A stretch of DNA of 64,000 nucleotides from Heterodontus francisci (lineage: Eukaryota). The notes below the pieces were generated by a model. That model was given only the letters and a program-made list of their open reading frames with translations, made no database searches and was not told where the DNA came from. This document shows positions 51,550 through 61,650 of this stretch, piece after piece (the stretch's first letter is position 1; the number at the start of each line of letters is the position of its first letter). Made by a program: the position numbers and the translations under genes. The stretch is taken from NCBI RefSeq assembly GCF_036365525.1, contig NW_027140159.1:62001-126000 (forward strand), written 5' to 3'.

Positions 51550-53286
51550 TTAGATTAGATTAGAATATTACAGCGCAGTACAGGCCCTTCGGCCCTCGAT
51601 GTTGCGCCGAGCTGTGAAACCATCTGACCTACACTATTCCATTTTCATCCATGTGTCTATCCAATGTCCACTTAAATGCCCTTAAAGTTGGCGAATCTAC
51701 TACTGCTGCAGGCAGGGCATTCCACGCCCTTACTACTCTCTGAGTAAAGAAACTACCTCTCACATCTCTCCGATATCTATCACCCCTCAACTTGAAGCTA
51801 TGTCCCCTCGTGTTTGCCATCACCATCCGAGGAATAAGACGCTCACTATCCACCCTATCTAACCCTCTGATTATCTTATATGTCTCTATTAAGTCACCTC
51901 TCCTCCTCCTTCTCTCCAACGAAAACAACCTCAAGTCCCTCAGCCTTTCCTCGTAAGACCTTCCCTCCATACCAGGCAACATCCTAGTAAATCTCCTCTG
52001 CACCCTTTCCATAGCTTCCACATCCTTTCTATAATGCGGTGACCAGAACTGCACGCAATACTCCAGGTGCGGTCTCACCAGAGTCTTGTACAGCTGCAGC
52101 ATGACCTGGTGGCTCCGAAACTCGACCCCCCTACTAATAAAAGCTAACACACCATATGCCTTCTTGACAGCCCTATTAACCTGGTTAGCAAACTTCAGGG
52201 ATTTATGCACCTGGACACCAAGATCTCTCTGCTCATCTACACTAACAAGAATCTTCCCATTAGCCCAGTACTCTGCATTCCTGTTACTCCTTCCAAAGTG
52301 AATCACCTCACACTTTTCCGCATTAAACTCCATTTGCCATCTCTCAGCCCAGCTCTGCAGCCTATCTATGTCTCTCTGTACCCTACAACATCCTTCGGCA
52401 CTAACAACAACTCCACCGACCTTAGTGTCATTTGCAAATTTACTAACCCACCCTTCTACACCCTCTTCCAGGTCATTTATAAAAATGACAAACAGCAATG
52501 GCCCCAAAACAGATCCTTGCGGTACACCACTAGTAACTAAACTCCAGGATGAACATTTGCCATCAACCACCACCCTCTGTCTTCTTTCAGCTAGCCAATT
52601 TCTGATCCAAAGCTCTAAATCACCTTCAACCCCATATTTCCGTATTTTCTGCAATAGCCTACCGTGGGGAACCTTATCAAACGCCTTACTGAAATCCATA
52701 TACACCACATCCACTGCTTTACCCTCGTCCACCTGTTTGGTCACCTTCTCGAAAAACTCAATAAGGTTTGTGAGGCATGACCTACCCGTCACAAAACCGT
52801 GCTGACTATCCCTAATGTACTTATTCTTTTCAAGATGATTATAAATCCTGTCTCTTATAACCTTTTCCAACATTTTACCCACAACCGAAGTGAGGCTCAC
52901 AGGTCTATAATTACCAGGGCTGTCTCTACTCCCCTTCTTGAACAAGGGGACAACATTTGCAATCCTCCAGTCTTCCGGCACTATTCCTGTCGACAATGAC
53001 GACATAAAGATCAAGGACAAAGGCTCTGCAATCTCCTCCCTAGCTTCCCAGAGAATCCTAGGATAAATCCCATCTGGCCCAGGGGACTTATCTATTTTCA
53101 CACTTTCCAAAATTGCTAACACCTCCTCCTTGTGAACCTCAATCCCATCTAGCCGTGTAGCCTGAATCTCAGTATTCTCAACAACATTTTCTTTCTCTAC
53201 TGTAAATACTTACGCAAAATATTCATTTAACACTTTCCCTATCCCCTCTGATTCCACACACAACTTCCCACTACTATCCTTGATTC
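51550..53286 (-). mobile_element. Young 5'-truncated CR1 with an uninterrupted RT ORF (51629-53122)
   Basis: 497-aa ORF with KSPGPDG, NYRPVSL, QHGF, DFSKAFD, GVPQGSVLGP and SKFANDTK (catalytic D to N), ending in a (TCTAA)n tail. Confidence 0.95.
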
Positions 53287-53574
53287 CCACAGTCTTCCTT
53301 CCAAAATCCATAACTTCCCATTGTTAAATAGTCATAAAACAGGGGGACGATGAAAACATTGTGGTTAAGGAGGAGTGTGGAATATTGGATGGTATAATTA
53401 TTTAGAATGATACCCAGACTCCAAGGGTTAAGCTAAGAGGGATAATCACAAACCAGAGGAAACAGTTTTAAATGAGATCTAGGAAAGTTCACGAAGAACT
53501 CATAGAATCTCAGAATGATCCACCACAGAAAGAGGCGAGTCAGCCACCCTGGCCGTGTGGGCCCGATACAGTTC

Positions 53575-53725
53575 TCCTTGGTATCCTGGCCAATATTTAT
53601 CACACAACCAAAATCACTAAATCAATGTACTGCTCATTATGACATTGATGCTTGTAGGAGCTTGCTGTGCACAACTGGATGTACATCTCAATCCAAGTCT
53701 GAGAGACAACAGTTCACAACTATTC
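53575..53725 (+). mobile_element. Deu-domain SINE fragment (SacSINE1/AmnSINE-like)
   Basis: GGTATCCTGGCCAATATTTATC...GGAGCTTGCTGTGCACAA, recognised from memory of the Deu domain. Confidence 0.55.
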
Positions 53726-53747
53726 TATACTACCCGTGGCTTGGTCA

Positions 53748-53952
53748 ATGTTAGATACAGAGTAAAGCTGCATCTACACTGTCACCATCAATCAATGCCA
53801 GGACAGGTACAGCACGGTGTTAGATACAGAGAAAAGCTCCGGCTACACTGTCCTCATCAAAGACTCCCTGGGCAGGTACAGCATGGGGTTAGATATATTG
53901 CAAAACTCCCTCTACACTGTCACCATCCCAGTTCAGGTACAGCACTGGGGTT
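53748..53952 (+). repeat. 69-bp tandem repeat, left part
   Basis: TTAGATACAGAGTAAAGCTCCCTCTACACTGTC.CCATCAA..ACTCCCAGGACAGGTACAGCACGGGG units at 53751, 53820 and 53889. Confidence 0.9.
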
Positions 53953-56900
53953 GGCTGCTGCCTAATTGGAGGTGCTGAGTGGTTAACAAGGTTCTGCTAA
54001 CTGTCGCTCTGCGCAGAGACTGGAGGCTGCAGGCTGTGTGACTGTTGCAAGAGGGAGAGACTGAGATTGAAAGGAAGGTGTTTCCACATTGACAACAAAG
54101 ACGACTGAGAACTGGAAGCTCTTCTGTGAGTTTGTTTCATATTGAACTATTTTTCATTGATTGTTGGAGGTGGGGAAGAAGTGATCTGAAGACCTTGGGT
54201 GGGGCTGTATTGTTCAATAGGGAGCTCCTGTCTTCAACACCTTTGGACAGGGAGCTCCTCCCCACACCAACTACCGAGCCTGGGACAGCTGGAGCTGCCC
54301 AGGTGAAGAGACTTATTATTTCAACATCGAAAGAGGCGTGTGCCTGGGCAGCTTACAGCTGGCCCAGATGAAGACATCACCCCACCCTCCCAACCAGAAG
54401 TCCAGCTAAAAGGCTTCTTTTAAAATACCAACAGAGACTGATTCAACCTGGCCTGCCTCTCCCTCAGCCTCTTCCCCTGTGTTACAATCCTTTAAGTATT
54501 TGCATTTCTGATTTATTACTGTATTTTGCCCTTTTTTTCTCTCAACACACAGTGCGTGTAACTCTTCTCCCCCATGGCTTCTCAGTCCTCTCCGGTGGCC
54601 GGGCCCTCCTATGTTGCAGCAGGAGTGGAAACCGTTACTGTGGCTCCTTGTGTTAAGGCAATGTCCGAGGTTGTCGGCCCCTCAGCCATTGTGGCAGCCT
54701 AAACATGTACGTGAAGGCTGTATTCTTCCTGAAGACTGGGCGGTCGGGGTCCCTCGTCCTAAGTACGGGGCTCACAGTGGGTGGGAGCTTCCTGCCAGTG
54801 GACCCACTGGGGGCCACTGCGCAGCAGATACTGTTGTCAAACATCATTCCTGATGAGCTCTTCCTCCCCCAACTGCGCCATCTGGGGGAGGTGATGTCGG
54901 GGATTACCCCAGTCCCGCTCAGTCTTTGGGAGCACAGCCTCTGACATGTCTACTCCTTCTGCCGCCAGCTATTTATGCAGCTGGCGCGGGAGGAGATCTT
55001 GGATGGACACATCAGTGTGGAGTTCCAGGGGATGGCCTACCGTGTCTTCTGAACCTTCGACAGGGCACGGTGCCATGTCTGCAAAGGGGTGGGGCATGTT
55101 CAGAAGAACTTCCCCAACCTCTCGGCCCCTAACTCCAACTCGGCGGCCCAGGGTGGCGCCTTTGCACCTCCTCCCACTCTCCCTAAGTCTCCTACAGATA
55201 CTCTTCAGTCGGTTCCAGAGGCTGTGATTTTCACGGCCTCCGGCAGGGAGGTGAGTACCCGTCGGGGTGGAAGGAAGGTGTGGAGGAAAAATATACATCA
55301 AGAGGCGCGTCCCCTGGACACCATGACACAACCCGAGCCTGAGCTCATCCCAAGGTCCGATTTTGGGAAGCCCACTTGCCCCAGTGCTGGGCTCAGTCCC
55401 AGGAAGACTAAAAAAAAGGACTGTGAGGAGGTGGAGGCCTCTGATGACATCGAGGTCTCTCATCCTCTGCGCCAAACTAGGCAAACAAGGCGAAGCCACC
55501 CCTCCACAGAGGTATCACAGGGCCCGGAGGGGCAGAGCCCATCTATTGGAGGGGAGCTGCCTCCTGTTTCGGGTCCCCAGCTTCCCCCTGCCACCACCAA
55601 CATCAAGGCTGCAAAGTCTGGGCAGGAGCACCCTACCCCTCAGGATGGAGGGGAGGGTGAAGCCCTTGTACATGAGGCCCCACCTGGAGGAGTAAGTGGA
55701 GGCCTGCATGTGGTGGGGGAGCCTTGGAACGCCTCCCATTCTGCCACTGCCACTGGGACAGGTGCCCTGATTGGAGGGGAGGGCGAGGCCCTAAAGTGAC
55801 GGACCTCCCAGTCGGAATCCACCCCAAACAAGCGACACCCTACCCGGTTATAATTGAAATTGTTGTCCCATCATCTGTGTCTGTGTGTTCTGGTGGAGCA
55901 GGAGATGGCCTCCTGTCTCCACCCGTGGTACCGGCTCTGGCTGGATTTCAGGAGTTGGGCACTTCTATCGCCCCTGAACCGCTCATTGGTCTGGGGATGG
56001 AGGTGGGGTCCAGAATCGCTGGTTTGCAAAGGCTCCAGTTCCTTTCTAGAGCCCAGAGACGACTCCCCCGCCATCGGTCCTGCGGGTGGGATCGTGATAG
56101 CGGCAGGACCAGCTGGCGCATCCGGAACGTGCACCTCTTAATGTGTGGTGGGTGTGTCGGCCGCTTGCGGTGACGACCCGGAGGAGGATGGGGATTCGGT
56201 ATGGGGCACGGAGGACGACCTTGCTTCCATCGCCTGTGAGGTGGTGTAATCCCTCATGCCTCCCACCGAGTCTCCTCTCATGCCCACGGCTGAAATCTGG
56301 GATTTCCTTGCGGCTTGCTGGGGTTGCCACAATAAAGTTCAGCTGGCCCTCGGCCGTTGGTCGAGTCTGGTGCTGATCATCCAGACCTTCCGTGCCGCTC
56401 TCAATAAAGTGGATAAGGGCGCAGGCATGAAACTGGTTGAGAGGCTCCGATTTAATGCGTTCCTCAATGGTTGTTGGGGGAGTGGAAGGCCAGGTGCACT
56501 TCCACTCCCTCCTCACAGTGAGGTGTTGGTGACGGTTTCTATGTACCTTTGACATGAAGATAACCATAGCCAGCCTCAACATCAACGGCAGCAGGGGGTC
56601 TCACTGCAGATTTCACAATCTCTCAGTACTCAGGGAAGGGAGATATGCCATGGGCTTTCTGCAGGAAATCCATACCGTTCCAGGAGACGAAGCCACCTGG
56701 CTCCTGGAGTGGCAGGGTGGGGTCTACATGAGTCATGTCACCCATATTTCAAGTGGGGTGGCTATTTTGATGGCACCGACTTTTCAGCCGGAGATTGTGG
56801 AACCAGTGCCGGGCCGCTTGTTCCACATTGCCGTTCACCTGAGTAGCGTGCCGCTCCACTTTGTGAACGTGTATGCACCCTCGCCCGGCGCGTTACAAGC

Positions 56901-59900
56901 GCGCTTCTTTGAAGAATGCATCATACTTGGGGGGGGGGGGTTTAAACTGTACCCTGGAGGTGGGGGATCGCTCCGGTCCCCAACGCGGCCAAGTGTCAAT
57001 GGAGAGGTTGAGGGGACTGATCAGCTGCCTCAACATGGTAGACGTCAGGTGGAATCTCCATCCCAACTCCAGCGCATTCATGTGGAGGTCTGGAGGAGGA
57101 GGGTCCCGAATTGACCGCCTTTACATTTTGCAGGGGTACGTCTCCCGCGTCTCGGCGGCCTCCATGCGGCTGATGCCATGCTCGGACTACCACATGGTGT
57201 GGGCGGAGTTCACTCCGCTCTGCACGCGGGCGGGGTCGACGTACTGGCAGTTTAACATCCGGCTAGGGGAGGACGAGAGTTTCCGTAGTTTCTGGGCTGA
57301 CTGGAGAAGGAAGCAAGAGGGCTTCCTTCTTTGAGGCTATGGTGGGATGTGGGCAAGATTCACAGACGTGTCTTCTGTCTGTATGCGAAGGGGTCAACCA
57401 AGAGGCGGGAAGCCTAGATCGGGTGCCTAGATGGGGAGTTGCTCGACTTGGATTCCAGCCTCGGTCATGCCGGCATGGACCCGGCCCTGTGGCAGGATAA
57501 AAGAGAAGATGGTCTGTTGAGTGACTTGCAGCTCATAGGGCCCCGAGGCACGTACGTGAGATCCTTGATCCAGATACTGGAAGATTTGGATCGCACCTCA
57601 CCCTTCTTCTATTCGCTGGCAAAATGGCGGGAGTTCCGTAAGCAGCTCGTCGCGCTGCTAGCCGATGATGGATCCTCCGTCATGGATCCAGAGGAAATGG
57701 GCCTCCCGGTCTGTACTTACCACAGTGCGTTGTTCTCTCCGGATCCGTCCAGCGAGGAGGTGTGCAGAGTTTTGTGTGAAGACCTGCCGGAGGTCAGCCT
57801 GGAGGGCGTCGAAGGATTGGAGGCTCCGCTTACATTGGTGGAGCTGACTAGCGCCCACCACCAGCTCTTGAGGGGAAAATCCCCGGGGTTCGACGGGCTG
57901 ATGGTGGAGTTCCTCAGGGCGTCCTGGGACGTCCTGGGTGACAATTCTGAGAGCGGGCCCTGGGGGAAAGCCTGTCGACCGTTAGATGCCCCTTCGTGGT
58001 GCAGGGCAGTCAATGTCCTGTTGCTGAAGAGGGGCGTTCTTTGCCTGCTTATAAACTGGCGTCTGGTCTCCCTCCTCAGCACGGATTATAAGATCTTTGC
58101 CCGGGCTATGTCTACTGGCCTGGGCTCCGTGCTGGCCCACATGATCCACCCTGACCAGTCCTACACGGTCCCAGGCCAGTCCATCCAGCACAACATCCAC
58201 CTGGTCCGGGGCTTGATCCAGCTTTCCCAGAGGACTGGTCAGTCGGTCGCCTTTCTCTCCCTTTATCAGGAGAAGGCTTTCGACAGGATGGATCACAAAT
58301 ACCGTTTCGGGACTCTGAGCGCTTTCGGACTTCAGCCGCATTTTTTGGCCTGGGTCTGACATTTATACGCCACGATAGAGTGTCTGGTCAAAGTTAACGG
58401 GTCCTTGACGGAGCCCGTTCGCTTTTGTGAGAGGAATGCGTCAGGGCTGCCCCATGTCCGGCCAATGGTATGCCATCTGCAAGGAACCATTCCTGTGCCT
58501 GCTTCACAGTAGGTTGACGGGATTGGCTCTGTGCGAGCCGGCCATGTGGATAGTCCTCTCGGATTAGGCCGATGACATGCTCCTCGCGGTCACAGATCCC
58601 GTTGACTTACGGAGGATGCGCAACTGCCAGCAGACCTTTTCTGCTGTGTCCTCCGCAAGGATTGATTGGGAGAAATATTCCGGTCTCCTCGTGCGTCAGT
58701 GGTTGGTGGACTCCCTGCCGGAGGAGATGACAACTTTTGAGTGGAGCACCATGCACCTCCTCTATCTGGGAGTCCACCTTAGCCCCGCTGAGGAAGCCAG
58801 GCTGGCAAACCGGCAGGAGCTTGAGGCGAAAGTCACCACTGGGCTGGGGCGCTGGACAGGACTGCTCCGAGTGCTTTCCTACAGTGGCCCAGTGCTGGTC
58901 ATAAACCAACTGGTGGCCTCGATGCTGTGGTACCGGTTGGTCACTTTTCCCCGCCCCCTGTATTTGCCACCAAGTTGCAGAAGAAAATCGTTGATTGCAT
59001 CTGGGGCAACAGGAAACACTGGGTCTCTGCTGCGGTCCTGAGTCTCCCGATCGAGGAGGGCGGCCTGTCGCTGTTGTGCATCCACACCCAGGCTGCGACT
59101 CTTTGCCTTTGGACCCTGAAGCGATACCTGTACATCGAGCGTCCTCCCAGATGGTGTGCACTGGCGACGTTTTTTTTCTGCCAGTGTCACTTCCTTCAAG
59201 ACGACACACAGCTCCAAGCGGATACCGTTATCCGCGACTCTCTGAGGGAGTTGCCTGTTTTTTAGTGAGATCTATTCCGAGTCAGGAACATGGTCGCCTC
59301 CTGTCAGGGTGCTCCCACGCCGGCAGAGGAGAGCGCCTCGGCTGGCCAGGCAGCCGACTCAGGGGACGGACTGGTGGGCGGAGGAATAGCCGAAGTTCCC
59401 GGGATGCCCCTCACTGCGGGTGGCGAGTGGGTTCGGGAGAGCAGAGCGCTCCCGACCGAGCTGATCCCCGCTCGGCCAGAACTGCTCATCAGACCCAGGC
59501 CCCGACACCCTCCTTAGAGCCGGTCCCGCACAACCTGAGCCACATCTCGGGAATGACCTCTGTGCCATTCCAACTGGTGCAGAGGAGTTTCCTGTACTGG
59601 CTGCTCCTGTGCACTCTCCACTTCCTCGCCTTCATCAGCCAGCCAGACACGTCCTGGCGGCCCGCGCTGCCAGCTGGCGGTGAGGGGAAACCTCGATGGA
59701 GGTCTATCTATGCGGGTGTCCTCCACCTTTACATCGGGGACCTGGCGTGAAGATGCGACTCAGGGCGGTCCCATGCAATAGACTTTTCAGTAGGTTCACG
59801 GACTCCCAGTCCGCCTGTACTTCCTGCGGCCTGGACGAGTCCGTGTTCCACGTATATGTGAAGTGTGTGAGGTTGCAGCCCTCCTTTAAGTATTTGAAGG

Positions 59901-60393
59901 GGCTGCTCCTCAAGATTTGGTTGCAGTCCCACGCTCCTGATATTTGGGCACCCGGTGAGGAGGGGCGTGGGCAGGGAGGAAGGTATCATCGTCAGTCTGC
60001 TCCTGGGCCTGGGCAAGATGGCAATTCAGAGGTCCAGGCTGCGGGCCGTCAGAGTATCTGTCCTCCCTGATTGTCTGCCCCTCTTCCCCGGTGACGTTCG
60101 TGCCCGGGTGTACCTGGAGAAGGAGCATGCGGTGTCCGCCGGCTCGCTGGAGGCCTTCTGCGACCAGTGGGCAACGGAGGGATTGGAGTGCATTGTCGAT
60201 GCCGAGAATGGCATTGTAATATGAGTTTTTATTTTATTTTATTTTAATAAAGTTATTTTAAGAAAATATGCATATAAAGAGGGCCTGTGGAATAAAGGCC
60301 CCCTCAACATAACATATATATAATGTGCCTGGTGTTTAAAGGCCTTCTTAAAAAAAAGGTGTTAGTAAGAGTAAAGCTCCCTCCAATAAAAAA
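53953..60393 (+). mobile_element. Full-length decayed Tx1-clade (L1 group) retrotransposon, about 6.4 kb
   Basis: 5' UTR, then ORF1 from ATG 54574 with zinc-knuckle CHVCKGVGHVQKNF. ORF2 runs from 56554 (MKITIASLNING, FLQE, VNVYAP, SRIDR, SDY, GKSPGFDG, NWRLVSLL..DYKI, IHPDQ, QEKAFDR, QGCP, ADD, CTSC...ESVFHVYVKC) to about 60223, followed by AATAAA and A-tracts. Confidence 0.9.
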
Positions 60394-60570
60394 ACTGGGT
60401 TAGATACATTGTAAAGCTCCCTCTACCCTGTCACCATCAAATACTTACAGGACAGGTACATCACGGGGGTTAGATACATAGTGAAGCTCCCTCTACAATG
60501 TCTCCGTTGAACACTCACTTGTCAGGTACAGCAGCGATGGATGCAGAGTAAAGTTCCATCTACCATTGCC
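60394..60570 (+). repeat. 69-bp tandem repeat, right part
   Basis: Units at 60400, 60470 and about 60538, continuing the array in register. Confidence 0.88.
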
Positions 60571-61184
60571 AGCCTTACTCTTTCTCTGTTTCTTTCTCCT
60601 CATCTTTCACTATTTGCAACACACTTTCTCTGCTCTTTTTCTCCATCTTCCCATTCTGAGAACAAGTGTGAGAGACTGAGATAATGTACAGAGTGAGATA
60701 GCGATAGAGAGAGGGAAGGGGAGAGATTGACTTGGAAAGTGAGTAACAGAGAGAAGAAATGGGGTTTCAGAGAGTAAAACAGAGAGCAAGATAGAGATTG
60801 AGATGGAAGTAGATTACCATCAAAAAGAGATTACCAGAGATTACTTCTCTCTCGTGCTATTTGTTACCCTTTCCATCTATTTTTTCTCCCTCTATGCCGA
60901 TGTTTCACACACCGTGCCACTTTCTCGTATGTCTGTGTATACTGCAGTGAAAGATTACATCAGATTATTATGTTTTACATTTGCTCTTTCAATGTAATCT
61001 AATAATCTCGCTGCTGGGAACAGATGAACGTTGCAGTGATTGTCAACTGATTCCTGAGGGTAACAGGACAGGTGGATCAGGTGGTGAAGAAGGCTTACGG
61101 GATACTTTCCTTTCTTAGTCGATGTATAGAATATAAAAGCTGAGAGGTTATACTAGAACTGTATAAAACAAAATTTAGAGCACA

Positions 61185-61650
61185 GTGACAAAGGGAGACA
61201 GAGGGAGAGAAAGAGAGAGAGGGTGAGACAGAGGGAGGGAGAGAAATTGAGGGAGAGAGATACAGAGAGAGAGGGATATTCATAAAGAAAGAGGGAGAGC
61301 GAGAGGCAGTGATGGTGTGAGAGAGAGATAAATAGAGTCATGGGCAGAGAGAGACAGAGAGGGAGAGAGAGGCACACAGAAAGAAACAGAGAGAGATGGA
61401 GAGGCAGAGAGAGCGAGAGACATGGAGAGAGAGAGACACACACAGAGAAACAGAGATAGAGGGAGGGACTGGGTAAGACAGGGAGAGGGAAATGCAGATA
61501 CAGGGGGAGATGAAGTGGCGGAGATGAACAGGCAGACAGTGGGATAATGAGGCAAAGACAGACAGAGAGAGGGAGAGACAGTGATAGAGAAATATAATGA
61601 AAGAGTCAGAGTTGGGGGATAGACAGCGACAGAGGGAGAGCGCTAGAGAG
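61185..61650. repeat. Degenerate (GA)n/(GACA)n microsatellite
   Basis: A purine-rich GA run leading into the gap. Confidence 0.85.

Follow-up and report, generated by a model that had tools for sequence, protein, structure and literature searches.

A Tx1L-lineage retrotransposon family with a relaxed preference for a shark minisatellite exports its own target

Mutsu and Dewa are target-specific retrotransposons of the Tx1 clade. Within the same clade, the literature describes Keno, Kibi and Koshi as target-specific (PMC4494074, PMC4640811) and Tx1L as inserting into another repeat by means of a sequence-reading endonuclease (PMC1950540), the target being Tx1D (PMC4494074, PMC1950540, PMC6719617). 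Tx1 families preferring transposons, microsatellites and satellites have already been described, some of them being listed with satellite targets under the label ‘Sat’ in Figure 3 of the same source (PMC4494074). Tx1-Mar and other crocodilian Tx1 families show a relaxed preference for a dispersed repeat, together with tandem insertion and trans-mobilised partners (PMC4494074). For a shark Tx1–minisatellite pair, no description was found in the open-access literature, and passages of PMC4640811 and PMC3747384 contain nothing on such a pair.

We consider it very likely that the locus described here holds a decayed copy from a Tx1L-lineage family that lands, in about four of every ten cases, at a single base of a dispersed 69-bp repeat and often carries pieces of the repeat elsewhere; its endonuclease likely nicks CAGC|ACGGGG, and read-through RNA likely plants targets that can be used again. 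The closest named protein is ORF2 of Xenopus laevis Tx1L (P14381, YTX2_XENLA; P0020 in our set), with 56% identity over 97% of the endonuclease–reverse transcriptase (RT) region. In an RT tree, a quick one of 48 rows from which P0157 was dropped as too short, the family and a ray-labelled protein are sister to Tx1L and to turtle- and sturgeon-labelled proteins (SH-aLRT 100). The family has two open reading frames, the second with an AP-like endonuclease and an RT, as in other Tx1-clade elements, and its copies show the poly(A) tail, 5′ truncation and target-site duplication that are hallmarks of the clade. The Tx1 identity proposed in the first-pass annotation is borne out, the nearest named relative being Tx1L and not the teleost elements: the pol-like proteins BAC82605 and BAC82609 are 39–42% identical to the shark family and belong to a different clade. 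Identity is 93% for a record labelled Heterodontus francisci, and words of the element occur in sequencing runs of five organisms at shares of at least 0.28. The pairing extends beyond this genome, since organism E has a single contig, at depth 111, that spans repeat and 5′ UTR; joints across the element site in other sequencing runs came from generic repeat contigs with short sides.

The family shares a well-supported clade with Tx1L and adds a new target for that lineage. In contrast to Tx1L, it targets a free dispersed minisatellite instead of a DNA transposon, misses this target in most of the sampled copies and often transduces it. Unlike the snRNA, 5S rRNA or tRNA genes targeted by the Keno, Mutsu and Dewa type, the repeat is no known RNA gene, since a search of Rfam gave no match over the repeat at three loci with E values up to 1. 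The relaxed preference for a dispersed repeat and the tandem insertion recall the crocodilian families, whose targets, however, are Mariner, Harbinger and LTR elements or microsatellites, and for which the available part of the description mentions no target spread by 3′ transduction (PMC4494074).

The element and its array in the window

The window, that is the whole stretch of 64,000 nucleotides analysed, holds a decayed Tx1L-lineage retrotransposon, with its body at 53953–60349, within a pre-existing 69-bp minisatellite that TRF places at 53749–53927 (period 69) and 60397–60530 (period 70). The features are as follows, the two short flanking sequences having been confirmed in the window.

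53749–53952, plus strand: left part of the minisatellite array, about three units, up to the 5′ junction CAGCACTGGGGTT (from the sequence, TRF and variants common to the right part)
53944–53952, plus strand: ACTGGGGTT, left copy of an apparent duplication, likely in part the element's own 5′ terminus (from CTG variant counts)
53953–54573, plus strand: 5′ UTR of the Tx1 element, subfamily starting GGCTGCTGCCTAATTGG
54574–56480, plus strand: ORF1 remnant with stops and one frame break (tblastn with the intact frame)
56554–60224, plus strand: ORF2 remnant, broken, with AP-like endonuclease, reverse transcriptase and C-terminal zinc motif
60225–60357, plus strand: 3′ UTR and first poly(A) (60350–60357)
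60358–60394, plus strand: 26-bp repeat fragment from the donor locus (60358–60383) and second A-tract (60384–60394)
60394–60570, plus strand: right duplication copy ACTGGGTT (60394–60401) and right part of the array, about 2.5 units

Pfam recovers the endonuclease and RT remnants, the endonuclease hairpin reads WRSGGGGSRID, and the ORF1 remnant has near 55070 what we take to be a CCHC knuckle. Against the intact ORFs of locus L172, which has an intact ORF1 frame of 683 residues, tblastn shows stops and frame breaks in both window ORFs. The 3′ part of the window ORF2 has a best identity of 87% among 121 aligned stretches of other sampled copies, and the window copy is therefore old. Together with its flanks the locus is present four times at 98.9–100% identity (window 53200–61650, and C694, C521 and C28 of G000); these are segmental duplicates, so the locus was counted once.

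Both halves of the array carry rare private variants. TTG after AGATA[C/T]A is found on both sides of the element and in none of 502 other units, and a GTCACC variant, likewise on both sides, recurs in 3 of 216 units elsewhere. The 26-bp piece has the canonical GAG, unlike the local TTG, and its layout is that of the off-target copies described below. The array was thus there first and the piece came with the element. The first-pass annotation had array and element where they are; it overlooked the piece of target transduced at the 3′ side, the body ending at 60349.

Insertion at one base of the repeat

Across the genome, 430 of 1092 exact matches to a 17-mer at the 3′ end of the 3′ UTR have GGTTAGAT within 3–33 nt downstream, for which the chance expectation is about 0.05%; the repeat 24-mer has 25,050 occurrences in 6.0 Gb. 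The first 3′ query contained a repeat fragment and was hence biased, and the search was redone without the fragment; with a query of ORF2 only, the repeat directly follows the poly(A) in 24 of 26 independent copies. At the other end, 24 of 32 truncated copies have their 5′ junction within the repeat, 18 of these at TTAGATAC or a few bases from it; many of the loci in this set came from a repeat-containing query, a bias that acts on the 3′ side only. As truncated copies cannot bring a 5′ leader and yet join the repeat, the insertions are independent, and they share one position in a multicopy target far more often than chance would give, as in other target-specific Tx1 families.

The junctions map the first-strand nick to CAGC|ACGGGG (CAGC|AC(T)GGG). 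The on-target duplication is ACGGGGTTAGATAC, of 14 bp, and off-target duplications measure 9–15 bp with a mode of 14 (scored in 21 of the 31 tried). The insertion point GGGGTT|AGATAC and the duplication of 8–9 bp read earlier from the window alone both describe the 5′ junction of full-length copies: the flanks are present, in a form shortened at full-length ends, while the nick itself lies elsewhere and truncated and off-target copies give 14 bp. Sixty full-length 5′ ends matched the search pattern, four being discarded as an unrelated repeat, and all 56 true ends join the repeat at GGGGTT or GGGATT. A CTG variant is enriched at these junctions (44 of 64 full-length junctions, compared with 7 of 198 internal units), so that the element itself likely begins with bases that mimic the target. 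Directly in front of older full-length copies there are also new ones, with the poly(A) followed by CTGGGATT or CTGGGGTT, and in this way head-to-tail arrays build up.

At C28:7.418–7.438 Mb and C19:87.204–87.217 Mb, full-length 5′ ends stand about 6.7 kb apart, three or four consecutively and head-to-tail. In another group of loci (L251–L310, L024, L038, L044, L051) several types of 5′ UTR are joined to one type of body at one junction, which suggests that the 5′ UTR has been replaced repeatedly in the family.

A scheme for the insertion can start from what is observed, namely the junction position, the 14-bp duplication, the poly(A) tail and the independence of the insertions. To judge from the junctions and the off-target motif, the endonuclease would nick the target, and target-primed reverse transcription would follow, with a second-strand cut about 14 bp downstream, as the family as a whole implies. 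The same relaxed enzyme would also nick lookalike sites off target, perhaps by way of a short glycine-rich hairpin. Transcription running past the element's poly(A) would then yield the repeat fragments and new poly(A) that are observed inside off-target duplications. A full-length 5′ junction keeps a usable site, which gives the head-to-tail arrays observed, and a planted site might be used again, for which one locus on C17 offers support.

Carriage of the repeat and possible reuse of planted sites

In 3′ transduction by LINE-1, transcription reads through a weak poly(A) signal, and the inserted copies carry a second poly(A) or lie as orphan pieces. The shark family shows the same second poly(A) and orphan pieces, and read-through past the element's poly(A) would explain the carried repeat fragments; unlike LINE-1, the element here carries its own preferred target as cargo. 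At eight loci (L199, L202, L203, L204, L009, L210, L220 and L197) a duplication of 14–15 bp in unrelated DNA surrounds both element and cargo; inside it the element and its poly(A) are followed by repeat sequence, from 9 to more than 200 bases long, and then by a second poly(A). Three generations are stacked in L197, where the next element is also represented by its first 40 bases, and complete cut sites were delivered in L210, L220 and L197. L252 is an orphan piece: a duplication there encloses poly(A), a single unit and about 20 bases of 5′ end. In L217, L220, L197 and L211 the carried pieces include 20–40 bases of non-repeat donor flank, which could point to the source loci. Many carried fragments end 8–25 bases after AGTAAA in the repeat unit (AGAGTAAAGCTCCCTC), a hexamer that we assume may be a weak variant of the poly(A) signal.

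Site-specific elements are usually limited by a fixed supply of landing sites, whereas this element exports its own target; the carried pieces likely give later copies new places to land, and they offer a testable route for the spread of a dispersed minisatellite. Reuse has support at one locus, C17:33.05 Mb, where a 15-bp duplication (one mismatch) encloses a truncated copy A, one repeat unit, a full-length copy B and a poly(A)-bearing fragment of 50 bp. Copy B is 99.6% identical to other copies, while copy A has a best identity of 93% in the sampled loci and of 96% in the genome at large, where 40 of 3228 candidates were scored. It appears that an old copy delivered the repeat here and that a young copy landed in it later, and the difference in age fits such reuse of a planted site. 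The case for reuse consists of this one locus and of finding no donor among the 40 scored of 3228 candidates, a donor in unassembled sequence being possible. At L321 a whole dimer (copy, unit, copy) moved as one RNA, so layouts like that on C17 can arise without reuse, and full-length 5′ junctions overstate on-target nicking. The presence of young, near-identical copies (99.6%) and of long intact frames in the genome means that the system can be assayed.

It is possible, though we think it doubtful, that element and repeat form a self-feeding pair, with the retrotransposon as a main source of new minisatellite loci, units planted by read-through RNA being hit again and growing into arrays, the full-length 5′ end regenerating the cut site and the short glycine-rich loop keeping the targeting loose enough for new ground to be taken; if so, the shark minisatellite would be largely the product of its own parasite. 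Transduction may be the repeat's main dispersal route, but the element-free arrays give this no backing: the eight such arrays in 180 kb of C1 all lack a terminal poly(A), and outer duplications, looked for around 50 on-target loci, were not found there. Most arrays therefore have another origin or have since lost these marks.

Off-target copies and the basis of the preference

Of 58 copies taken in positional order (the first sites listed, all on C1 or C2 and classified by hand), 20 had hit the target, 32 had missed it and 6 were left unclassified; the misses comprise 15 without repeat and 17 with repeat fragments and a further poly(A), in most cases within the duplication. At 25 off-target nick sites, 5.96 of 15 positions match the target, compared with 3.67 for background, and C precedes the nick in 23 of the 25; the likeness exceeds background even with C|A fixed (0 of 20000 resamples). 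A secondary site in another abundant repeat, GGTACACCC|ACAGTGCTGTTAGG, resembles the main target and was used at the same base in L009 (C44:21.68 Mb) and L203 (C1:112.68 Mb); L037 (C44:16.76 Mb) ends there too, a repeat fragment abutting the site. This resemblance of off-target sites to the target fits one endonuclease with a loose reading of sequence, which would make both kinds of nick.

The endonuclease hairpin segment (FTWRSGGGGSRID) has 13 residues and is glycine-rich, compared with 17 residues in Tx1L and seven other named relatives, a loop four residues shorter; in two further relatives the segment has 14 residues. In chimeras of the L1 endonuclease the hairpin loop changes the nicking preference (PMC1950540). 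In the shark family the short glycine-rich hairpin perhaps underlies the relaxed nicking. A natural endonuclease with a short loop gives a handle on what sets LINE endonuclease specificity.

The preference could instead be set by chromatin or a host factor at repeat clusters near chromosome ends, and not by sequence reading. The distribution of copies is in line with this, as the 21 Mb nearest a contig end contain all 20 on-target copies and 8 off-target ones, whereas further in there are none on target and 24 off (Fisher p 3e-8). Copies also lie toward the downstream end of their arrays: in 38 of 50 on-target loci the upstream part of the array is the longer one (p 0.0003; 24 of 30 full-length and 14 of 20 truncated), with median lengths of 158 bp upstream and 72.5 bp downstream, an asymmetry that is left unexplained by the model we propose. 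However, a regional factor does not predict single-base precision, nor the target motif at off-target sites, nor the use of one base of another repeat in both L009 and L203, with L037 ending there too, and we regard this explanation as improbable.

A strictly sequence-specific family, with the repeat as a passive target, is a little less probable still. The base-precise junctions, including every true full-length 5′ end, speak for it, as does the presence of an element in 9 of 15 repeat clusters (counted by hand in a 180-kb part of C1 selected for its repeat matches). Against it, 32 of the 52 classified copies lie outside the repeat, contig interiors hold only misses, and the repeat was carried along in 17 of these. 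A rule of strict specificity was rejected on the off-target copies with clean 14-bp duplications. The target-specific family postulated from the window alone, and the comparison of flanks proposed as its check, thus come out in part: targeting is precise to the base, with truncated junctions at one position, but it is not strict, the majority of the position-ordered sample being off target.

We give no better prospects to the reading in which the repeat belongs to the element's ends at both termini and the apparent targeting is cargo. The 3′ repeat fragments are indeed carried, the CTG variant suggests an element-borne 5′ terminus, and L321 moved a unit between two copies. Three-quarters of the truncated copies nonetheless join the repeat where no 5′ leader is possible, and truncated copies are seen that have repeat to either side but lack an outer duplication. 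The private variants of the window array are common to both sides of the element, and at L194 the duplication extends from the last unit into unique flank.

Another reading places the repeat within a non-autonomous DNA transposon, on the model of Tx1D and Tx1L (PMC4494074), or has the pairs spread by segmental duplication, as the window locus itself did. Its probability is negligible, since the array ends are ragged, truncation points vary among copies, and the outer flanks listed (53 left and 69 right array ends) are unrelated and share no terminus, which argues that the repeat is not the inside of such a transposon.

Directly to the left of the window array, on the minus strand, lies an open RT frame of 526 residues (51629–53209), presumably of CR1-like type. 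Pieces similar to it interrupt many of the sampled Tx1 copies.
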